Source: a virus | Virus record (IMG/VR): IMGVR_UViG_3300046643_000057 | Coordinates: 1-56,389 of that record | DNA: 56,389 nucleotides | Reading direction: 5' to 3' (one strand) | Shown here: piece after piece, positions 7,898 through 33,669 of the stretch | Layout: every line of letters begins with the position of its first letter | Position numbering within the stretch: position 1 is the first letter of the stretch | Translations under genes and position numbers: made by a program | Notes under the pieces: model-generated | Databases searched by the model: none | Seen by the model: the letters and a program-made list of their open reading frames with translations, nothing else | What the model was told of the DNA's origin: nothing

Positions 7898-7915
7898 CTG
7901 TATCAAGTGATACAG
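7898..7915. promoter_or_regulatory. palindromic operator-like site O1 (CTGTATCAAGTGATACAG, perfect)
   Basis: 8-bp inverted arms with a 2-bp spacer, 44 bp upstream of the ATG at 7959. One of six related sites. Confidence 0.6.
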
Positions 7916-7958: not shown

Positions 7959-8933
7959 ATGTCACACGAACTCACCACCCGCGCAAACGGCCTCACCGAA
8001 ATGGCCTATGTCGGCGAAACGCCTTGGCACGGTCTCGGCCAAGAGCTCACCGAAGGCGCATCGATCGACGATTGGAAAACCGCTGCTGGCATGGATTGGA
8101 AAGTGCAGCGCTCCAAAGTCCGCTACTTCGCCGATGCGGCCGGCGCGCAGCAGTTCGAAATGGAGGACCGCCATGTCCTCTTGCGCAGCGACGACAAGAA
8201 GGCTCTCGGCATCGTGAGCCCTGAATTCAAGATCGTACAGCCCGGCGCCGTGCTCGAATTCTTCCGCGACCTGACCGAAGACGCAGGCATGCATTTGCAC
8301 ACTGCCGGCACGCTCTTTGGTGGTCGCAAGTTTTGGGCACTCGCCAAGGTCGCAGAAGCCACCATCCAAGGCGCCGACAAGGTCGGGGGCTACCTGCTCC
8401 TCGCCACAGCCTGCGACGGCAGCATGGCAACCGAGATTCGCGAGACGAGCATTCGGGTTGTCTGCAATAACACGCTGTCTATGGCTCGCAGCGTCGGTGC
8501 CAAGCGCGACGTGATCCGTATCACCCATCGCGAGAAGTTCAACGCCGAGTCCGTGAAGACTCGCATGCTCGACGCTGGCTCTTCGTTCGCGTCGCACATC
8601 GCACTCGCTCAGGAACTGAGCCGCAAGCGCGTCACAAACGCGATGGCTGAAGAGTTTGTCCGCAAGCTGCTTCGCCCTGACGAGGTGCTCATCGAAGGCG
8701 AAGAGGTTCGCGCACCGAAGGGTGAGGCTGATATTTTGCGTCTCTTCAAAGGTGAAGCGATCGGCTACGGGATGAGTGGTAGCGGCTCGGCGTGGACCTT
8801 GGTGAATGCCGTCACTCAATGGGTGGATCACGTCAAGGGTGGAAAGTCCGAGAGCCATCGTCTTGACTCCGCATTCTTCGGATCGGGCGACGATCTCAAA
8901 AATCGTGCCTTCGATCTCGCCTTCACGATCTGA
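7959..8933 (+). CDS. DUF932-like phage/plasmid protein
   Basis: 324 aa. Segments ...WHGLGQEL..., ...ALGIVSPEFKIVQPGAVLEFF..., ...GGRKFWALAKV... and TACDGSMATEIRETSIRVVCNNTLSMA match my memory of the DUF932 / TIGR03299 family. Confidence 0.7.
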   Translation: MSHELTTRANGLTEMAYVGETPWHGLGQELTEGASIDDWKTAAGMDWKVQRSKVRYFADAAGAQQFEMEDRHVLLRSDDKKALGIVSPEFKIVQPGAVLEFFRDLTEDAGMHLHTAGTLFGGRKFWALAKVAEATIQGADKVGGYLLLATACDGSMATEIRETSIRVVCNNTLSMARSVGAKRDVIRITHREKFNAESVKTRMLDAGSSFASHIALAQELSRKRVTNAMAEEFVRKLLRPDEVLIEGEEVRAPKGEADILRLFKGEAIGYGMSGSGSAWTLVNAVTQWVDHVKGGKSESHRLDSAFFGSGDDLKNRAFDLAFTI

Positions 8934-15880: not shown

Positions 15881-15909
15881 TTGACAAGCTCGTATCAAGT
15901 GATACACAC
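15881..15909 (+). promoter_or_regulatory. sigma70-like promoter with operator-like site O3 (TCGTATCAAGTGATACAC at 15890-15907)
   Basis: Consensus TTGACA at 15881-15886. The palindrome occupies the spacer and -10 region. Lies 36 bp upstream of the ATG at 15945. Confidence 0.55.
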
Positions 15910-15944: not shown

Positions 15945-16277
15945 ATGTCCAAGCAAACCATCAAGCTCGCCGAGGCGCTGTTGCGCCGCAAGGAACTCCA
16001 AGGCAAGGTCGACGTCCTGAAGCAGATCAAGGACAAGGACATGTTCGAAGTCAAGGCAAGCCGCAAGAAGGTCACCGAAGACTTGGACGATGTCGTCGCG
16101 GCTGTGCCCAAGCTCACGGCCTCGCAGTTCACGGCCGAATACGATTGGCACGCCAAGCAGTTGCGCCTGATCGATGCGGCCATCCAGCAAACGAACTGGA
16201 CGGCCGAGATCACGATCGATCACGATGTGATGGCCGAGTACAGCGACCGCACGGCGGCGCCGAAGACCCCGGCCTGA
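15945..16277 (+). CDS. DIP1984/septicolysin-like family protein (short version)
   Basis: The N-terminal KLAEALLRRKELQGKVDVL and C-terminal KQLRLIDAAIQQTNWTAEI match the conserved ends of that family as I remember them. Confidence 0.6.
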   Translation: MSKQTIKLAEALLRRKELQGKVDVLKQIKDKDMFEVKASRKKVTEDLDDVVAAVPKLTASQFTAEYDWHAKQLRLIDAAIQQTNWTAEITIDHDVMAEYSDRTAAPKTPA

Positions 16278-21370: not shown

Positions 21371-23708
21371 GCTCTGGCTCGATCTCGAGACCTTCAGCCC
21401 GACGCCGATCAAACACGGCACGGCGCGCTACGCCGAAGAGGCCGAGATCATGCTCGTGTCGCATGCCGTCGACGACGGCCCTGTCGGCGTAACCGACTTC
21501 ACGAACGGCGAAGACCTGCCTTTCGAAGTACAGTGCGCCGCGGCCGATCCTGACTCCGTCGTCATTTTCCAGAACGGCACGAAATTCGACTGGACCGTGA
21601 TCGCGGCGCAGTGGCCGACGTTCGCCCGCCTCGTGCCTGTGGAGCGCCGCAGAGACACAATGGTGATGGCGTACTCACACAGCCTGCCGGGTGGCTTGGA
21701 AGCCCTGTGCGACGCGCTCGGTGTGGCGCAGGACAAGAGAAAGCTCAAGACCGGCCGCGACTTCATCCGGCTCTTTTGCATGCCGCCCCCAAAGAACGTG
21801 AAGCGCGAGCGCGCGACACGTCTCACGCACCCCGTCGAGTGGGCCGCCTTCAAGGACTACGCCGGTCAAGACATCGTCGCGATGCGCGAATGCTGGAAAC
21901 GCTGCCCCCACTGGAATTACCCTGACCTTGCGCCTAACGGCGAAGAGTGGATGAAGGGCATGCACGGCAAGGCCAAGCAGTTGATCCTCGAGGCGCTCGA
22001 CGCCAAGATCAACACCCGCGGCATCTGCATGGACTTGGAGCTCGCCGAGGCCGCGGTGCGCGTGAGCGAGATCGCCAAGAAAGGCCTCGCGGTTCAGACC
22101 AAGGCCATGACGGACGGCGACGTCGGCGCGGCCACGCAACGCGACGAAATGCTCAAGCACATTCTCGAGGCCTATGGCGTCGATCTGCCGGACATGCAGA
22201 AGGACACGATCGAACGCCGCATTGCCGACGAGAGCCTGCCGGAAGAGCTTCGCGAACTGCTGCGCGTGCGGCTCGAATCGACGACAACGAGCGTCGCGAA
22301 ATACACCACGCTCCTGCGCGCCGTCAACAGCGATGGGCGCCTGCGCGGCACGCAGCAATTCCGCGGCGCGGCGCGCACGGGCCGTGTCGGGCATCGGCTC
22401 TTTCAACCCGGCAACATGCCGCGGCCCGACATGCCGTGGAAGGAAATCTATTGGGCGATCGAGCTTCTGAAGCGCGACACGGTGCACCTCGTCTACGCCA
22501 ACATCATGCGGGTCTGCAGCAACGCGATCCGCGGCACGATCATCGCCGGCCCTGGCAAGAAACTCGTGGTCGCTGACTTGGCGAACATCGAGGGGCGGTT
22601 CGCCGCGTGGTTGGCCGGCGAGGAATGGAAGCTGCAAGCCTTCCGCGACTACGACACGTTCGAAGGTGTCGACGAAAAAGGCAAGCCCAAACGCAAGGGT
22701 CACGATCTCTACATCCTGGCCTACGCATCGAGTTTCAATGTCCCGCCCGAGAGCATCGACAAGAGCACGATCGAAGGCTACGCGATGCGCCAGATCGGCA
22801 AGGTGCAAGAGTTGATGTTTCAGTATGGCGGAGGTGTCGGTGCGTGGATCACCGGAGCCGCGACCTACGGCATCGACTTGAATGCGATGACCGAGCAGGT
22901 CTACGACACGGTACCGAAGTGGGCGATCGACGAGGCCTCGGGTTATCTTGAGTATCTCTACAAAGGGCCGCGCGAGCGCTACGAGGCCCGGCTTGAGAAG
23001 ATCGCCGAAGATGGCACGACACCCGATCCGGTCGACGCGGTCAAGGCTGCGGCTGCGATCTATGAGGCCGCCAAGCTCAAGTTGCGCTACGGCCTGACCG
23101 AGAAGGTCTTCATCACATGCGACGCGATCAAGCGTCTTTGGCGCAAGGCTCACCCCGAGATCAGCAGCTACTGGAAAGAGCTTGAGAACATGATCCGGGC
23201 TGCGATCGAGAACCCCGGCCAACGCTTCACCGCACGCAAGCTCGTCATCCAACGCGATGGTGCGTGGCTGCGCGTCCGGCTGCCGAGCGGCCGCGCGCTC
23301 TGCTACCCCTCACCGAAGTGGGATCACGTCATTCCGGCCGAGATCGATCTCGCCACGGGCAGGGTGCTCAGGCCTGCGAAGCGTTTCGACGGCTTCAGCT
23401 ACATGGGCATTCACCCGTATTCGCGTAAGTGGACGCGCATCGGCTCCTACGGCGGCAAGGTTTTCGAGAACGTGACGCAAGCCGGATCGTGCGATCAGTT
23501 GCTTGAGTGCGGGCCGTTGATCGAAGAGGCCGGGTTCGAACTCGTGCTGTCGGTGCATGACGAATGGGTCAGCGAAGCGGACGTGAGCCGCGACGACTTG
23601 GACGACGAGTTGCTCGGCTCGCTCATGTGCAGCAATCTCGGATGGAATGAAGGGTTGCCGCTCGCGGCTGCTGGGTACTCCGGATTCCGTTATAGAAAGG
23701 ATGACTGA
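21333..23708 (+). CDS. family A DNA polymerase with 3-prime-5-prime exonuclease domain
   Basis: Exo I LWLDLETFS. Pol motif A VVADLANIEGR, motif B RQIGKVQELMFQYGGG, motif C LSVHDEWVSE. The start is at 21333 or at GTG 21360. Confidence 0.9.
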   Translation: MVGAYRTKIVVAKLWLDLETFSPTPIKHGTARYAEEAEIMLVSHAVDDGPVGVTDFTNGEDLPFEVQCAAADPDSVVIFQNGTKFDWTVIAAQWPTFARLVPVERRRDTMVMAYSHSLPGGLEALCDALGVAQDKRKLKTGRDFIRLFCMPPPKNVKRERATRLTHPVEWAAFKDYAGQDIVAMRECWKRCPHWNYPDLAPNGEEWMKGMHGKAKQLILEALDAKINTRGICMDLELAEAAVRVSEIAKKGLAVQTKAMTDGDVGAATQRDEMLKHILEAYGVDLPDMQKDTIERRIADESLPEELRELLRVRLESTTTSVAKYTTLLRAVNSDGRLRGTQQFRGAARTGRVGHRLFQPGNMPRPDMPWKEIYWAIELLKRDTVHLVYANIMRVCSNAIRGTIIAGPGKKLVVADLANIEGRFAAWLAGEEWKLQAFRDYDTFEGVDEKGKPKRKGHDLYILAYASSFNVPPESIDKSTIEGYAMRQIGKVQELMFQYGGGVGAWITGAATYGIDLNAMTEQVYDTVPKWAIDEASGYLEYLYKGPRERYEARLEKIAEDGTTPDPVDAVKAAAAIYEAAKLKLRYGLTEKVFITCDAIKRLWRKAHPEISSYWKELENMIRAAIENPGQRFTARKLVIQRDGAWLRVRLPSGRALCYPSPKWDHVIPAEIDLATGRVLRPAKRFDGFSYMGIHPYSRKWTRIGSYGGKVFENVTQAGSCDQLLECGPLIEEAGFELVLSVHDEWVSEADVSRDDLDDELLGSLMCSNLGWNEGLPLAAAGYSGFRYRKDD

Positions 23709-23950
23709 TGGCTAACGACCGCTGCAAAGACGTGCAGTATATTTTCTCGACTCAACTCGGGAAAAACGTACCGAACAATCTTGAGCACAGCAAAATGGCG
23801 TTGCTCATGGACCTGCGTGATGAGTTGAAACTCAACAACGAGTTGCAATACCGCGTTCTCGCGGTGCTTGAGCGCCCCAACACCACGAAGATTCCGCACA
23901 TCCTCGCGCGCATCGACCGTCGGCTCGCCAAGAAAATGCCGTTGAAATGA
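23708..23950 (+). CDS. hypothetical protein (80 aa, low GC)
   Basis: ATG overlaps the polymerase stop. Local GC is about 48-50%. Confidence 0.55.
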   Translation: MANDRCKDVQYIFSTQLGKNVPNNLEHSKMALLMDLRDELKLNNELQYRVLAVLERPNTTKIPHILARIDRRLAKKMPLK

Positions 23951-24159
23951 GCATCTTCGAATACATCCCTGATCCGTGGGACTTGGAAGAGGACGAGCGA
24001 GAGCCGCGCAACGTGCCTCGTTGCAGGTCTTGCGGATCGACCGATGTGCGCTGGCGTCAGCAAACCGGCAAGTGGGTGCTCTTTAGCTTGCAGCCGGGTG
24101 TTGAGCACTCTTGCCCGGGCGTGACGGATGACTCGGGTTTCGACGTGGTGTCGGAATGA
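23947..24159 (+). CDS. small zinc-ribbon-like protein (70 aa)
   Basis: CRSCGS ... HSCPG Cys/His pairs. ATGA coupling on both sides. Confidence 0.55.
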   Translation: MSIFEYIPDPWDLEEDEREPRNVPRCRSCGSTDVRWRQQTGKWVLFSLQPGVEHSCPGVTDDSGFDVVSE

Positions 24160-24467
24160 GCACCGCGATTGAAATCCGCTTGAAGATGATCGCGGCTCGC
24201 GTACTCGAGTCGCCTGCACGCAAGCGATGGGAAGCGCACTTCGAAGAGATTCACCGGCGAGCGCTGATGATCATTTTGTGGCGCGTCTACTGTCTTGAGA
24301 TCGTAGATCAAGGACAGCGCCTGCTCACGATGCACGAGCACGACTTCGAATTCGTCGATGATTCTTTCAGCCACGAGTACGGAACTGAACAGATTTTCTA
24401 CTTCCAATGCGCGTGCGGTGAGACACGCGAATGCGAGCCGGGAGATTTTCACGAATTCGACGATTGA
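24156..24467 (+). CDS. hypothetical protein (103 aa)
   Basis: Coupled ORF with a C-terminal CACGETREC segment. Confidence 0.55.
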   Translation: MSTAIEIRLKMIAARVLESPARKRWEAHFEEIHRRALMIILWRVYCLEIVDQGQRLLTMHEHDFEFVDDSFSHEYGTEQIFYFQCACGETRECEPGDFHEFDD

Positions 24468-24493
24468 CTCTGTATCACTTGATACGTTAGGAT
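24464..24493 (+). promoter_or_regulatory. sigma70-like promoter with operator-like site O4 (CTGTATCACTTGATACGT at 24470-24487)
   Basis: TTGACT at 24464-24469, an 18-nt spacer filled by the palindrome, and TAGGAT at 24488-24493. The ATG at 24500 follows. Confidence 0.6.
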
Positions 24494-24499
24494 GACGAC

Positions 24500-25171
24500 A
24501 TGCTGATCGACACATGCTCATGGGATCACCCCGGCGCCGATGCCTACACAGGTTCGGCGACTGCCGCGATCTACGCGATGGCGCCCGACATTCCGGTCCG
24601 CGTCAAGCGCGTGTTCGCCGAGAGGGCCGAGCGTCACGAGGTCGACGACGTGGTCTACATCGACCGCGATTCGATCCGCGGCAAGTACGCCTACGAGCCC
24701 GAGATCAGTTTCATGGCGTTCGGCAGCAAGGGCCGAATCTGCGCCAACGTCACCCGCAACAAGTGGAGCCCCGACCATGTCGAATCGGCGATCGTCATCT
24801 GCGAGCAAGGGTGGTGCGTGGCCCGGCCCTCTGTTTGCAACAACTGGTCCCTCGTCACTCGACACGAGCCTGCCGGCCCTGCGGCCCCTCCGGTCGCTCT
24901 TCTCGCACCTCCTGAAGCCTTCGGCCCTCCTGCGTCCGAAGTCGGAGCACCCGGGCCTACCCCCTTGCTTCTGCGCGACGTGCCGCTCGAGGCGCAGCCG
25001 GGAGAAGGTGACGGACCATCCGCGCCTCTCGTGCGCGGACCTGTGTTTCTGTCCGGTCTGCCTGTTCTTGTCGAGCCCGTGACGCCGGTCCCTGAGCCCA
25101 CGGTGCTCTGGCTGATGATCGTGGGTCTCGTCGCAATCGCATGGAAAGTGGGCAAGCGCTATGACCGATGA
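24500..25171 (+). CDS. PEP-CTERM sorting-domain protein (MHFG-family-like)
   Basis: The C-terminus VPEPTVLWLMIVGLVAIAWKVGKRYDR has a PEP motif, a TM helix and a basic cluster. The N-terminal domain CSWDHPGADAYTG...ISFMAFGSKGRICANVTRNKW...CEQGWCVARPSVCNN resembles the MHFG family as I recall it. Confidence 0.75.
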   Translation: MLIDTCSWDHPGADAYTGSATAAIYAMAPDIPVRVKRVFAERAERHEVDDVVYIDRDSIRGKYAYEPEISFMAFGSKGRICANVTRNKWSPDHVESAIVICEQGWCVARPSVCNNWSLVTRHEPAGPAAPPVALLAPPEAFGPPASEVGAPGPTPLLLRDVPLEAQPGEGDGPSAPLVRGPVFLSGLPVLVEPVTPVPEPTVLWLMIVGLVAIAWKVGKRYDR

Positions 25172-25424
25172 CGACAAGATCAAGGCCGCGCGCAAGGCGC
25201 TCCGCAAGATCGCGAACATGAGCGAAGGCGTCGTGAAGACGACCGCACTCGATGCCCTCACGATCCTCGGCCATCGCGAGAAGTTCCGGCAGACCACCGC
25301 GCTCGACCGCCGCCATGTCCTCGAGCGCACCGACCTATCGGTGATCGAGGTCGCAGCAATGCTCGGTCTGAGCGAGAACGTGGTGCGCAAGATTCGGTCG
25401 GACGCTTGGGGACGGCGTCTGTGA
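25161..25424 (+). CDS. small HTH protein
   Basis: C-terminal LSVIEVAAMLGLSENVVRKIRSD is helix-turn-helix-like. Confidence 0.6.
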   Translation: MTDDDKIKAARKALRKIANMSEGVVKTTALDALTILGHREKFRQTTALDRRHVLERTDLSVIEVAAMLGLSENVVRKIRSDAWGRRL

Positions 25425-25810
25425 AGCTCTACGCGACCTTGTGGGATCGGCTCTGCGCGAACATCGTGATCGACGAGCTCGGCTGCTGGATTTGGATCGG
25501 GCCGACACGGCGCCACGGTGGCGGCGATCGGCCGATGATCACGATGCGCGTAGCCGGTGGCGGTCGTGCGACGCAGCCGAAGAACTACAACGCCGCGCGC
25601 ATCATGTGCGAGCAGGTCCACGGCCCCGCGCCGGGGCCAGAGTACGACGCGTCTCATCTGTGCGAGGACGAGTGGTTGTGCATCTGCCCTGATCATGTGA
25701 TTTGGGAGACGAAGAAAGAGAACGCGGCGCGGCTCACGGCCAAGCGCCGGCTCGAGGCTTTCTGCGACCCGTTCGTGCGCGGCGTGGTGACGACTGTCTG
25801 CCCGTTCTAG
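25421..25810 (+). CDS. HNH endonuclease
   Basis: GTG overlaps the upstream stop. Contains GCWIWIG...SHLCEDEWLCICPDHVIWETKKEN (His-Me finger pattern). Confidence 0.7.
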   Translation: MKLYATLWDRLCANIVIDELGCWIWIGPTRRHGGGDRPMITMRVAGGGRATQPKNYNAARIMCEQVHGPAPGPEYDASHLCEDEWLCICPDHVIWETKKENAARLTAKRRLEAFCDPFVRGVVTTVCPF

Positions 25811-25811
25811 C

Positions 25812-26156
25812 ATGAGCGTCGTCTGCTATTTCCGGCCCGGCACGAAGGCGAAGATCATGGCCGGCGAGTGGGTGCATTGGGTTTTCGGCCACAAGTCGCG
25901 AGCGCACTACCTCTATGCCTGCGTGATGAGTTATCCACCGTGGGTCGACAAGGTCGATTTGCTGATGCTCAAAGCGTGGGCCGACGCGATGAGTGCTTTC
26001 CACGGCGAGCGCTACGTGCTCGATCACATCGTGCCAGTGACGCACGACCGCGTCAGCGGTCTCGGTGTGCCTTGGAATTTTCAGGTCATTCACTGGCGTG
26101 TGAACGGTGCGAAGGGCAACAAGTGGGAGCCGGATCAAATGGAGTTGTTCGCATGA
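25812..26156 (+). CDS. HNH endonuclease (second, unrelated copy)
   Basis: Contains YVLDHIVPVTHDRVSGLGVPWNFQVIHWRVNGAKGNKW (H-N-H spacing). Confidence 0.7.
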   Translation: MSVVCYFRPGTKAKIMAGEWVHWVFGHKSRAHYLYACVMSYPPWVDKVDLLMLKAWADAMSAFHGERYVLDHIVPVTHDRVSGLGVPWNFQVIHWRVNGAKGNKWEPDQMELFA

Positions 26157-28124: not shown

Positions 28125-28341
28125 ATTTCACCTTTGGTCGAAAGACAACCTCGTGAAGTTTGCCGAGGAGGCGACCGTCGTGCTCATCCAGAAAGACGCG
28201 CGGATCGTGCAACTCGAAAAAGACCTAAAAGTTGTAAAAGAGGCTTGGCGTCAAGCGGTATCAAGTGATACAGTTCACGAATGGACAGCATCACCCCCAC
28301 ACAGTACGCAGCCGGTTTCCTCGCCTTCGCGTTCATCGTGA
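28117..28341 (+). CDS. hypothetical coiled-coil protein (74 aa)
   Basis: ATG at 28117 overlaps the helicase stop. The C-terminal part runs across operator O5 and the next gene start, so the true end is uncertain. Confidence 0.45.
   Translation: MAEFHLWSKDNLVKFAEEATVVLIQKDARIVQLEKDLKVVKEAWRQAVSSDTVHEWTASPPHSTQPVSSPSRSS
28256..28273. promoter_or_regulatory. operator-like site O5 (CGGTATCAAGTGATACAG)
   Basis: Ends 7 bp upstream of the ATG at 28281, the first gene of the GT/MTase module. A possible TTGGCG-18-TACAGT promoter overlaps it. Confidence 0.5.
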
Positions 28342-30497: not shown

Positions 30498-31201
30498 CGA
30501 TGCACCCGGTCGCCGGCAAAGAGAAGAGCCGCATGCTCTGCCAAGCCTTCGCCGATGGCTGCCCGGCTGACGCGAAGGGTCATGTCTTCTACGGCGTCGA
30601 CAAGTCGAATCTCGATACCTTCAATCGTGTCAGGGCGAGCGGTGAGGACTGGTACTACGTCGACAACAGTTTTTTCGATAAGGTCCGCGGCCTGCAGTTT
30701 CGCGTCGCCAAGAACCGAATTCAAACGAAGGTGCACGGGCAGGCGATCGTCGACTTTTCCCGCTTCGAAAAGCTCCATATCCCGACGCGGCCGATGCGCG
30801 ATGACGATAAGGGTTGCGTGCTCATGGTCGAGCAATCCGAGAGCTTCATGCGCGAGATCGCGTGTGATCCATCTTGGTTCTACCGCACGATGAACGAGGT
30901 CAGCAAAGGCCCGTTTGCCGACCGCAAGATCAAGCTGCGCAAGTGGGATCGGAACAAGGAGAAGCAGCAGGCCACGCTCGTGAGCGACCTGCAGGGCGCC
31001 GCGCTCGTCGTGACGCACTCCTCAGCCGCCGCGGTGACCGCGTTTGCGCAGGGTGTGCCGATCATCGTCTCGCCGATGTCCTCGCTTCACGGCACGTCGG
31101 CAGCCGAAAGACTGCACACCTTCGGCGTCCTCGCAGAGAATCAGTGGTCCCCCTCACAGATGCGCAATGGAGACGCTTGGCAATGGTTCAACAAAAACTA
31201 G
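30491..31201 (+). CDS. putative glycosyltransferase, distant paralogue of 29748..30497
   Basis: 236 aa. WYYVDNSFFDKVRGLQFRVAKN and VVTHSSAAAVTAFAQGVPIIV parallel the neighbour's motifs. Confidence 0.4.
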   Translation: MVTMHPVAGKEKSRMLCQAFADGCPADAKGHVFYGVDKSNLDTFNRVRASGEDWYYVDNSFFDKVRGLQFRVAKNRIQTKVHGQAIVDFSRFEKLHIPTRPMRDDDKGCVLMVEQSESFMREIACDPSWFYRTMNEVSKGPFADRKIKLRKWDRNKEKQQATLVSDLQGAALVVTHSSAAAVTAFAQGVPIIVSPMSSLHGTSAAERLHTFGVLAENQWSPSQMRNGDAWQWFNKN

Positions 31202-31734
31202 GCTGGTTCAACACGGCCGGCAGGCCGGGCGACCGCACGCTCAAAGATCAACTCGTCGGACTCGACACCCTGATCGCCCGTGTGTCCGGCAAGACGGTGC
31301 TCGACGTCGGATGCGCCGAAGGTCTGATCTCGCTGCAACTCTTCGACGAAGGCGCCGTAGCGGTCCACGGCGTCGAGATCGTGCAGGGCCATGTCGACGT
31401 CGCCAACAAGTTGCGCGGCGATCGTGCGTGCACCTTCGAACAGGGCGACGCCGACCACTTCATGCCCAAGCGTCAATACGACATCGTGATCATGCTGGCG
31501 CTGTTGCAGAAGCTCAGGAATCCGACGATGGCTTGCCGCAAGTTCGCGGCCGCGGCGCGCGAACTGGTGGTGCTCCGCTTGCCACCGCGCGGCGATCCGC
31601 TCATGCTTGTGGATCAGCGCAGCGGCTACATCGAGCACGACATCCGTGAAGCGATGCTCGGCAGCGGCTTCGTGCTCGCTGACGTTGTCTCCGGTCACCT
31701 CGGCGAGCACATCAGCTATTGGGAACGCAAATGA
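31183..31734 (+). CDS. class I SAM-dependent methyltransferase
   Basis: Motif I VLDVGCAEGLISLQL, followed by VHGVEI and IVIMLALLQKL. Confidence 0.7.
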   Translation: MVQQKLGWFNTAGRPGDRTLKDQLVGLDTLIARVSGKTVLDVGCAEGLISLQLFDEGAVAVHGVEIVQGHVDVANKLRGDRACTFEQGDADHFMPKRQYDIVIMLALLQKLRNPTMACRKFAAAARELVVLRLPPRGDPLMLVDQRSGYIEHDIREAMLGSGFVLADVVSGHLGEHISYWERK

Positions 31735-32254: not shown

Positions 32255-32995
32255 GTGGGCATCGGAGATCAACTCATGGCGGCCGGCGAAGCGCGTCGTC
32301 TGCACAAAACGCACGGCCGCCCGGTGATGATCGTCGACCGCGCCGGGCGGCCGCAGAAGAGCGATCTGTGGACCGGTATTCCCTACATCACGCAGAGCCA
32401 CGTCGGCGGCCCGATGCGGTTGCTCAACTGCTCCGGCGTTCGACCCTATATCGCCGGCAAGACGTCGAGCAAATGGACGTGGCGCCACTTCAAGCCGACG
32501 CCGGCCGAGATCGTCTTCACGGCCGAGGAGCTCGTCTTCGCTGCACCGTTTCGTGACAAGGTGATGATCGAGCCCAACGTCAAGAACATCGGCCACACGA
32601 ACAAGGCGTGGTTCGGTGACCGATGGCTCGCTCTGTCCGAGACGCGGCAGGACTTCGTGCAGTGCGTCTCGGACCCATCGCAGTCACTGCCGCACAACGT
32701 GCTCAAGGTCATCACCCCGACGTTTCGCCACGCGCTTGCCATACTCTCGGTGAGCCGCGCTTTCGTCAGCACAGAGGGTGGTCTCATGCACGGCGCCGCA
32801 GCGACGCGCACGCCGGCTGTGATTCTCTGGTCCGAGTTCATCGCGCCTGAGATCACCGGCTACGAGACCATGACGAACCTGCGCCACGCCGGCAAGCCTT
32901 GCGGCAACCGCATGAATTGCCCCGGCTGCAGGACGTCGATGGAAGCGATTTCAGTCACCGAAGTGAGCGATGCGCTCGAAAGGATTCTCAAATGA
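32255..32995 (+). CDS. GT9-like (heptosyltransferase family) glycosyltransferase, short form
   Basis: GIGDQLMAAGEARRL at the N-terminus and FVSTEGGLMHGAAATRTPAVILW near the C-terminus resemble GT9 signatures. GTG at 32255 lies just after the upstream stop. Confidence 0.6.
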   Translation: MGIGDQLMAAGEARRLHKTHGRPVMIVDRAGRPQKSDLWTGIPYITQSHVGGPMRLLNCSGVRPYIAGKTSSKWTWRHFKPTPAEIVFTAEELVFAAPFRDKVMIEPNVKNIGHTNKAWFGDRWLALSETRQDFVQCVSDPSQSLPHNVLKVITPTFRHALAILSVSRAFVSTEGGLMHGAAATRTPAVILWSEFIAPEITGYETMTNLRHAGKPCGNRMNCPGCRTSMEAISVTEVSDALERILK

Positions 32996-33669
32996 AGCAA
33001 GTCGGCCCGTGGGCGTTCCCAGATAACGAACAGCACCTCATCGACTGGATGGCCGCACCCAAGGGCTACCTCGTCGTGAACGGTCGCCCGTCGTACCAAG
33101 GCAAGAAGCAACTGCGTTGCATGGACTTCGTGCCGCTGAAACGCCGTCGCGTCGCAATCGACGTGGGCGGGCACATCGGCCTGTGGTCGTTCAACCTCGC
33201 GCACTGGTTCGAGAAGGTCGAAGCATTCGAGCCGGTCGAGGTGCACCGTGATTGCTTTGAAAAGAACGTCTTCGAAGCGCCGGATTACCGCGGGTCGAGT
33301 GTCACGATGCACCCCTTCGCTCTCGGCGAGCGCGAGGACATGGTGACGATCCACACCTCGAGCACGAGCTCCGGCGACTCGTGGGTGAAGGGCAAAGGCA
33401 CGATCCCGATGAAGACGATCGATTCGTTCGGGTTCGAAAACGTCGACTTCATCAAGATCGATTGCGAAGGCTACGAGGAGTTCGTGCTGCGTGGTGGCCG
33501 AGAAACCATCGGCAAGCACGGCCCTGTTATCTGCGTCGAGCAGAAGCGCGACATGGCTTCGACGCGCTTCGGTCTGAAGCCGCTCGGCGCCGTCAAGCTG
33601 TTGATCGGCATGGGGTACAAGGTCGTCGCCGAGGTCAGTGGCGACTACATCCTCACACGCACGCCGTGA
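32992..33669 (+). CDS. FkbM-family methyltransferase
   Basis: VAIDVGGHIGLWSFNLAHWFEKVEAFEP ... VDFIKIDCEGYEEFVLRGG is the classic FkbM pattern. Confidence 0.8.
   Translation: MKQVGPWAFPDNEQHLIDWMAAPKGYLVVNGRPSYQGKKQLRCMDFVPLKRRRVAIDVGGHIGLWSFNLAHWFEKVEAFEPVEVHRDCFEKNVFEAPDYRGSSVTMHPFALGEREDMVTIHTSSTSSGDSWVKGKGTIPMKTIDSFGFENVDFIKIDCEGYEEFVLRGGRETIGKHGPVICVEQKRDMASTRFGLKPLGAVKLLIGMGYKVVAEVSGDYILTRTP

Follow-up and report, generated by a model that had tools for sequence, protein, structure and literature searches.

A phage-associated branch of MHFG-family PEP-CTERM proteins retains the sorting signal and mostly lacks a signal peptide

The gene at positions 24500–25171 of the IMG/VR virus record IMGVR_UViG_3300046643_000057, a complete 56,389-bp Joint Genome Institute (JGI) phage contig analysed here over its whole length (the window), very probably encodes a diverged phage member of the MHFG family of PEP-CTERM proteins that belongs to a phage-associated branch of this family. 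Most of this branch has lost the export signal, with the sequence now starting almost exactly at the mature N terminus, and the C-terminal sorting signal is still conserved. Since a protein of this kind cannot enter the Sec pathway normally, we consider it more likely to be a non-canonical ligand, that is, a competitor or decoy, of the host exosortase pathway than an exported cargo, and we assign this reading a probability of about 0.4.

Results

The gene and its protein

The open reading frame (ORF) on the + strand starts with ATG and encodes 223 amino acids followed by a stop codon. An earlier note on this DNA had placed the gene at these coordinates on this strand, with the elements CSWDHPG, ISFMAFG, CEQGWC and VCNN, all of which were present, and had described its product as resembling the MHFG family and ending in a PEP-CTERM sorting signal. 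Hidden Markov model (HMM) searches bore out both descriptions. The family model NF038119 (MHFG family PEP-CTERM) matched with 155.7 bits against a curated cutoff of 100, aligning residues 4–132 of the protein with model positions 2–128 of 260, and the sorting-signal model TIGR02595 matched residues 197–219 with 18.0 bits against a cutoff of 16, so that both models that the note had proposed as a check exceeded their thresholds; the Pfam model PF07589 fell marginally short of its gathering score (20.6 versus 20.7). All 26 nearest homologues also matched NF038119. The C-terminal end of the protein reads VPEPTVLWLMIVGLVAIAWKVGKRYDR and has the tripartite PEP-CTERM layout of a Pro-Glu-Pro motif (V197-P-E-P200), a hydrophobic helix (T201–W215) and a basic cluster at the extreme C terminus (K216-V-G-K-R-Y-D-R223), with the acidic PE before the helix and a tail of charge +3 after it.

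An AlphaFold2 model built from an alignment of 26 sequences showed an N-terminal alpha/beta domain (residues 1–125) with a predicted local distance difference test score (pLDDT) above 90, a disordered Pro-rich linker with a pLDDT of about 47–61 over most of its length and a C-terminal helix at residues 200–222. The gene can accordingly be divided as follows.

24500..25171, + strand: MHFG-family PEP-CTERM gene of the phage clade, without a signal peptide
24500..24865, + strand: Cys-rich N-domain, residues 1–122, conserved among homologues and folded in the AlphaFold2 model
24866..25078, + strand: Pro-rich linker, residues 123–193, of low pLDDT and hypervariable between homologues
25079..25168, + strand: PEP-CTERM sorting signal, residues 194–223 (TIGR02595 match at residues 197–219, helix at residues 200–222)

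A Foldseek search of the model against PDB and BFVD gave no match at E ≤ 0.001, and a sequence-profile search of the PDB sequences found nothing, so the fold offers no functional lead. A nominal fold match in BFVD (template modelling score, TM, 0.18) and matches to sliding-clamp and galectin folds (E > 0.2, TM about 0.1) were dismissed. PADLOC detected no defence system in the protein and four of its neighbours, no PHROG family matched the protein, and tblastn against 50,697 GenBank phage records returned no match. An antisense ORF of 431 amino acids (24518–25813, − strand) is one of the many long spurious ORFs that the window contains because of its 62% G+C content; unlike this ORF, the frame at 24500–25171 on the + strand has the homologues.

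The signal peptide is missing

The N terminus of the window protein reads MLIDTCSWDHPG and contains no hydrophobic segment; there is no room for a signal peptide, since the reading frame is closed by a TAG three codons 5′ of the ATG. The alignment of the 26 nearest relatives includes sequences with classical signal peptides; in the window protein and most of its neighbours, 2–7 residues precede the first invariant Cys. The NF038119 model starts at residue 17–21 in chromosomal members named by the National Center for Biotechnology Information (NCBI) versus residue 3–4 in phage members, indicating that the phage proteins begin at the mature N terminus. At the other loci encoding proteins without a signal peptide, the upstream reading frame was closed or not hydrophobic. 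Together, these results show that the export signal was lost by a precise removal in most of the phage branch.

Could the apparent loss be an artefact, either of a mis-called start or of a captured host gene that persists as a truncated, non-functional remnant? High-GC DNA does yield many spurious ORFs and ambiguous starts, and a few relatives have aberrant C termini (a readthrough tail at locus L008 and an extension in protein P0004, both described below). The in-frame stop codon, however, fixes the start of the window gene, and a Shine–Dalgarno sequence lies at the right distance from it; moreover, the frames upstream at the other loci lack hydrophobic character, the protein is cut back exactly to the mature N terminus, and at least 55 cluster representatives (50% identity) without a signal peptide in the phage branch, from two unrelated phage types, keep the domain, the key residues and the sorting signal. 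We therefore regard an artefact as very improbable.

Approximately 97% of PEP-CTERM proteins carry a signal peptide (PMC1569441). In the published model, the protein is exported by Sec and held by its C-terminal helix such that the PEP motif lies at the periplasmic face beside the EpsH active site (PMC1569441). Since this model needs Sec export and the signal peptide is absent, the window protein cannot follow the published route as written, and its sequence makes canonical Sec-then-exosortase processing doubtful. The earlier proposal of an exosortase substrate that hijacks the host pathway assumed normal export and thus fails in the form in which it was stated.

The protein might still reach the periplasmic side by another route, for example if its C-terminal helix served as a reverse signal-anchor or if a cryptic export pathway existed; the host exosortase would then cleave it at the PEP motif, and the displayed or released product could remodel the envelope or matrix or exclude other phages. 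Several features are consistent with such a cargo. The full PEP-CTERM signal is constrained in the phage clade and passes TIGR02595, five Cys residues do not vary in either clade, as would be expected of disulfides in an exported domain, and phage variants with and without a signal peptide share the conserved residues, which suggests one function. The charges flanking the helix (acidic before, +3 after) also favour an N-out/C-in orientation, which the CxxC...CxxC tail of P0004 would fit. Against this, there is neither a signal peptide nor room for one in a protein whose published route depends on Sec; translocation would involve approximately 195 residues, among them a folded domain that carries about 14 Lys/Arg, for which there is no good precedent; the C-terminal helix leaves the ribosome only at termination; and 55 of the 64 clade members no longer have the signal peptide. 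Nor did the charge comparison show adaptation. The net charge of the N-terminal part was the same in proteins with and without a signal peptide (−4.7 versus −4.9), and Lys plus Arg numbered 15.9 in proteins without and 18.7 in proteins with one; this comparison, although not decisive, gave no sign of the more acidic, Lys/Arg-poorer sequence of a protein adapted to signal-peptide-independent N-tail translocation. On balance, we consider normal processing of the window protein as cargo possible but somewhat unlikely.

Regarding the N termini of chromosomal-type members (P0026–P0133 and P0269–P0370), the hydrophobic stretches are short (18–19 amino acids), contain no Lys or Arg and are well kept in sequence, as in MSLGLQLILSTTLVAAPPG-C and MGINLIMATAMATAAAGG-C, with the first invariant Cys always directly after them. 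A graded series of hydrophobic N-terminal stubs of 9–13 amino acids also exists in the family.

The sorting signal is conserved in the phage clade

The mean identity of clade members to the window protein differed among the three parts.

N-domain: 59%
Linker: 20%
C-terminal 30 residues: 38%

A [V/I]PE motif, a hydrophobic helix of 15–20 residues and a Lys/Arg cluster were kept in essentially every clade member. Since this signal is kept while the linker drifts, the sorting signal appears to be under constraint even in proteins without a signal peptide. In the N-domain, C6, C81, C101, C106 and C113 are the five Cys residues invariant in both clades, together with W8, G18, Y65, M72, G75 and N115.

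The window protein has M72-A73-F74-G75 in place of the MH[FS]G motif, so that the namesake His is replaced by Ala. This His was kept in all 111 aligned sequences outside the phage clade, and in a first sample of the clade 16 of 21 sequences had Ala. In the larger sample, 25 sequences had MAFG, all of them inside the phage clade, and they represent a sub-lineage only; the exchange was rejected as a hallmark of the whole clade, because the members without a signal peptide included 41 with MHFG versus 19 with MAFG.

Two relatives depart from the usual C terminus. P0004 (L014, 585–1424; 59% identity) continues for about 55 residues past the PEP-CTERM helix with a CxxC...CxxC tail resembling a zinc ribbon, which would be expected to be cytoplasmic. 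The protein without a signal peptide at L008 (6004–6825) carries a degenerate signal, IPAPS...RKASRR, and about 100 additional residues after it, reflecting either a lost stop codon or an assembly error. It had been taken for a charge-reversed tail anchor, an interpretation dropped because the full translation consists of the degenerate signal and a readthrough tail.

Phage members form a branch of the family

When a profile of the clade was used in an exhaustive HMM search, 1,187 cluster representatives were retrieved at E ≤ 0.001; 266 sequences were classified by their N terminus.

No signal peptide: 63 of 266
Short hydrophobic stub (9–11 amino acids): 11 of 266
Hydrophobic N terminus: 192 of 266

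In a neighbour-joining tree of the N-domain, a single bipartition separated 64 sequences, comprising 55 of the 63 without a signal peptide, 7 with one and 2 stubs, from the 194 other sequences and the remaining 8 without a signal peptide (Matthews correlation coefficient 0.82). All nine proteins with a verified phage context fell inside the phage split, and all five verified chromosomal proteins (Duganella, Pseudoduganella, Scleromatobacter and two large genomes) fell outside it. The genomic contexts examined in the clade were phage-like in 15 of 15 cases, where phage-like means the presence of marker genes, on metagenomic contigs except for the named genomes. The contexts were of the following kinds.

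The window, L014, L016 and L004: window-like phages with PolA and SNF2 genes
L001: a 62-kb phage with lysozyme and Mom
L002, L012 and L013: lambdoid early regions with RecT/YqaJ, Cro/CI-like, NinB/NinG, lambda P, DUF1376, GpA-type terminase and portal genes
L015: a phage with integrase, single-stranded DNA-binding protein (SSB) and Gp157 genes
L017: a small-ORF operon with a denV-like gene
L006 and L008: further phage-like IMG/VR contigs

In a blind test, three new proteins without a signal peptide (starting MIDT-C...) were all located in phage early regions (L018, L019 and L020). Chromosomal members, in contrast, lay amid ordinary cellular genes (L003 in Duganella, L009 in Mitsuaria and L010 in Rubrivivax), and all named cellular members of the family belong to the Burkholderiales. 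Together, these results support the assignment of the window gene to a phage-associated branch.

No conserved neighbour was found among the three chromosomal loci. At two of them, cyclic-di-GMP genes adjoin the MHFG gene (FIST plus PAS-GGDEF at L003, 4581–6798; EAL at L009, 6253–7563), a weak hint of a biofilm-related role of the cellular family. Two large IMG/VR contigs, L005 (342 kb) and L007 (193 kb), carry MHFG homologues with hydrophobic N termini (MLLAALALSTTIST-C and MKKLFVLLLLAFASALASAAEPI-C) and may be jumbo phages or cellular contigs with prophages.

An all-against-all comparison of the ORFs within 3 kb of the gene at 12 phage loci found no universal neighbour; the only recurring neighbours were the SNF2 helicase in window-like phages and DUF1376 in lambdoid ones. 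At L001, L012, L018 and L020, the MHFG gene repeatedly stands beside DNA-modification genes, namely those for DpdA, a Vut_1/YhhQ-type queuosine-precursor transporter, DUF4406, 3′-phosphoadenosine-5′-phosphosulfate (PAPS) reductase, Mom, and N6/N4 or C5 methyltransferases. The genes could be functionally linked or could simply share early accessory regions.

These contexts bear on an exosortase-independent role, in which the helix would be an inherited membrane anchor or a protein-binding helix and the Cys/His-rich domain would act in the cytoplasm, possibly in a metal-dependent manner and linked to an early function. The absence of a signal peptide is consistent with this role, as are the invariable position of the gene in early/replication regions and its repeated placement at the four loci just named; the five Cys residues and a His could form a metal site working in a reducing compartment. 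However, a mere anchor needs neither the invariant Pro-Glu before the helix nor the basic tail, no neighbouring gene is conserved across loci, the cellular relatives have hydrophobic N termini and are curated as PEP-CTERM proteins, and no fold or defence-system match backs an enzymatic role. A function wholly apart from exosortase thus seems quite unlikely to us.

A predicted promoter and palindrome block precedes the gene

The 32-nt gap 5′ of the ATG holds TTGACT-18-TAGGAT (24464–24493), the sole sigma70-like match in 23600–25600, where 0.3 would be expected. This predicted promoter encloses a palindrome, GTATCAcTTGATAC, directly 5′ of the gene, which recurs elsewhere in the window.

24464..24493, + strand: predicted sigma70-like promoter, with the −35 hexamer TTGACT at 24464–24469, an 18-nt spacer and the −10 hexamer TAGGAT at 24488–24493
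24472..24485, no strand: operator-like palindrome GTATCA-CT-TGATAC (GTATCACTTGATAC), between the −35 and −10 hexamers
7900..7913, no strand: second perfect copy (GTATCAAGTGATAC), ahead of the + strand DUF932 gene (7959–8933)
15892..15905, no strand: third perfect copy, 5 nt downstream of a TTGACA and ahead of the + strand ORF 15945–16277
28258..28271, no strand: fourth perfect copy, in the gap following the SNF2 helicase gene and preceding the + strand ORFs at 28281 and 28342
7801, 13531 and 15751: copies with two mismatches

The window thus contains four perfect and three two-mismatch copies of GTATCA-NN-TGATAC against 0.45 expected, and none of 100 shuffles reached seven copies. Each perfect copy is located in a gap preceding + strand ORFs, and the copy at 15892 marks the start of the long + strand early/replication block. 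The palindrome is probably the operator of a phage regulator.

An AGGA Shine–Dalgarno sequence (24489–24492) lies 7 nt before the ATG. Since the −10 hexamer overlaps it and ends 6 nt 5′ of the ATG, a transcript from the predicted promoter would be leaderless or nearly so; read-through transcripts, unlike the promoter's own, would use the Shine–Dalgarno sequence. The related phage fragment L014, whose homologue is 59% identical, has the same arrangement: TTGACC, GTATCACTTGcTAC in an 18-nt spacer, TAGGAT, 8 nt and ATG, with the −10 hexamer again overlapping the ribosome-binding site. Its palindrome has one mismatch and occupies the same place relative to the gene. The promoter blocks of the window and L014 are identical at 31 of 35 positions, and the DNA further upstream is unalignable, indicating that the block moves together with the gene. 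The operator–promoter that the earlier note had ascribed to the gene is thus supported, at the level of sequence, by its being the only sigma70-like site, by the recurrence of the palindrome and by the retention of the block in L014.

The position of the gene itself varies. The window and L014 carry it on one side of the SNF2 gene and L004 and L016 on the other, and elsewhere the MHFG gene is placed in lambdoid early operons. No terminator was found for the cassette. With its predicted promoter, co-moving block and variable position, the gene would resemble a moron-like cassette.

The phage genome and its likely host

The window carries structural and lysis genes for a portal/adaptor, a large terminase, an internal virion protein, a tail fibre, a virion structural protein and an Rz-like spanin, and replication genes for a primase-helicase, a DUF2800 nuclease, an Enc34-type SSB, PolA, HNH and SNF2. 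The gene is thus indeed phage-encoded, as had been claimed. No integrase or repressor was recognised among the window ORFs scanned, in a scan that was not exhaustive. A megablast search with 12 kb around the gene against the 50,697 GenBank phage records gave no match. The closest relatives of the window PolA, at 46–49% identity, belong to the Bordetella BPP-1 group and Burkholderia BcepC6B podophages. Together with the cellular relatives of the MHFG gene, which as named are all from the Burkholderiales, these PolA sequences make a Burkholderiales host plausible; the constraint on the host that the earlier note had proposed is plausible on the same two indirect grounds.

The earlier note had also placed the gene at the head of a transcription unit running towards a glycosyltransferase/methyltransferase module. 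Two methyltransferase genes are present at 30874–31731 and 32899–33666, one being class I S-adenosylmethionine-dependent and one of the FkbM family, and no glycosyltransferase was found. Because the palindrome recurs at 28258, between the gene and the methyltransferases, a single unit without interruption is improbable. Downstream of the MHFG gene in L016, another related fragment, there is likewise a class I methyltransferase.

Discussion

The identity of the window gene and the course of its evolution are well supported by the results above, and the function proposed for it is more tentative. In the reading that we favour, the protein, encoded together with its promoter-plus-palindrome block inside the early/replication region of the window, would be made early in infection. 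Its C-terminal helix would associate it with the inner membrane, where the conserved sorting signal would act on the host exosortase/PEP-CTERM pathway. Such a competitor or decoy would, for example, occupy the exosortase or disturb the assembly of PEP-CTERM matrix proteins. The pay-off could be an altered surface or floc matrix of the infected cell, with effects on dispersal, exclusion of other phages or trapping of progeny on debris. A stronger proposal, in which the phage MHFG proteins without a signal peptide are dedicated exosortase inhibitors or decoys that offer a correct PEP-CTERM signal on a protein that is not normally processable and thereby halt the display of host PEP-CTERM matrix proteins during infection, is speculative, and we would rate it as unlikely.

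Several points weigh against a non-canonical ligand. Canonical exosortase recognition needs an N-out/C-in helix, which is hard to reach without a signal peptide, and a C-out tail anchor would need to have its +3 tail translocated; none of the simple topologies is thus free of difficulty. The invariance of the five Cys residues within a clade without signal peptides, as for the disulfides of an exported domain, points to export. Good signal peptides occur in seven phage-clade members, of which at least two (P0012 and P0013) are carried by phages; the exported form therefore also works in phages. The N-domain tree that defines the branch was built without bootstrap support, and signal peptides were called by a hydrophobicity heuristic and not by SignalP. 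Finally, the N termini of the chromosomal members differ from typical Sec signal peptides, which makes the export route of these relatives themselves uncertain.

PEP-CTERM/exosortase sorting, a widespread system of environmental Gram-negative bacteria whose mechanism is poorly understood, is required for flocs and biofilms to form, as in activated sludge. PEP-CTERM domains are expected only where an exosortase (EpsH/Xrt) and exopolysaccharide genes are encoded. A phage branch that has a sorting signal and no export signal conflicts with the accepted Sec-then-exosortase route. Therefore, either such signals are usable without entry into Sec, or a cargo has been repurposed as a decoy, an inhibitor or a cytoplasmic factor. 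If the stronger proposal of dedicated inhibitors or decoys is true, the phage proteins would represent the first phage counter-measure against the exosortase/floc-matrix system and a natural probe of substrate recognition. The MHFG family and the PEP-CTERM signal were already known, and what is new is the phage-specific branch with this combination of signals. In the literature searched, neither papers on the MHFG family nor reports of PEP-CTERM proteins encoded by phages were found; the sole related item was a Dehalococcoides mobile element for which a PEP-CTERM domain is briefly mentioned. Our results also suggest that the automatic label "MHFG family PEP-CTERM protein", which derives from an equivalog model, probably overstates the functional equivalence of the phage proteins, and that the gene may serve as a host-range marker for Burkholderiales.

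Comparison with known systems

The chromosomal MHFG proteins (NF038119) of Burkholderiales such as Duganella, Pseudoduganella, Roseateles, Paucibacter, Scleromatobacter and Mitsuaria are the closest known counterparts. Their Cys-rich domain is 34–47% identical to that of the window protein, and, like it, they combine this domain with a Pro-rich linker and a PEP-CTERM signal and have the five Cys residues, W8, G18, Y65, M72, G75 and N115. The NCBI-named members score 172–298 bits with NF038119, however, versus 155.7 for the window protein. They have a hydrophobic N terminus of 18–30 amino acids and the invariant His, whereas the window protein lacks the former and has Ala in place of the latter; their linkers are longer (103 versus 77 amino acids on average); and they lie among ordinary chromosomal neighbours, whereas the window protein is phage-borne and falls in a separate branch. 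Given this branch, the different N terminus and the different context, functional equivalence to the NF038119 seed members appears doubtful.

With the substrates of the exosortase (EpsH/XrtA) system (Haft et al. 2006; PMC1569441), whose setting is exopolysaccharide-producing and floc-forming Betaproteobacteria, the window protein shares the PEP motif, the transmembrane helix and the basic cluster. It differs in lacking the signal peptide that the model for this system requires, and the phage has no exosortase gene, nor would one be expected. Among experimentally studied PEP-CTERM cargo are the floc-forming PepA proteins of Zoogloea and Aquincola (PMC9850573; NF033554), whose likeness to the window protein is confined to the C-terminal signal (11 bits).

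With no N-terminal signal, a single predicted C-terminal helix and that hydrophobic helix in the last 25 residues, the window protein also has the make-up of a tail-anchored protein. Bacterial tail-anchored proteins have a single C-terminal helix and no signal peptide, and their short C-terminal tail crosses the membrane. The window protein, with its C-terminal tail of +3 and the acidic PE before the helix, has the opposite charge bias, which would argue against a cytoplasmic N-domain with a translocated C-terminal tail.

Phages also encode moron membrane proteins that alter the host surface or exclude other phages, such as Lom and Bor of lambda, SieA of P22, and Imm and Sp of T4. No sequence or fold relation of the window protein to these was found, and they use ordinary signal peptides or N-terminal helices, whereas the window protein has a host-type C-terminal sorting signal. 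Like them, the window gene is small and non-essential-looking, has a promoter/operator-like block of its own and a variable position, and encodes a protein with a predicted membrane association.

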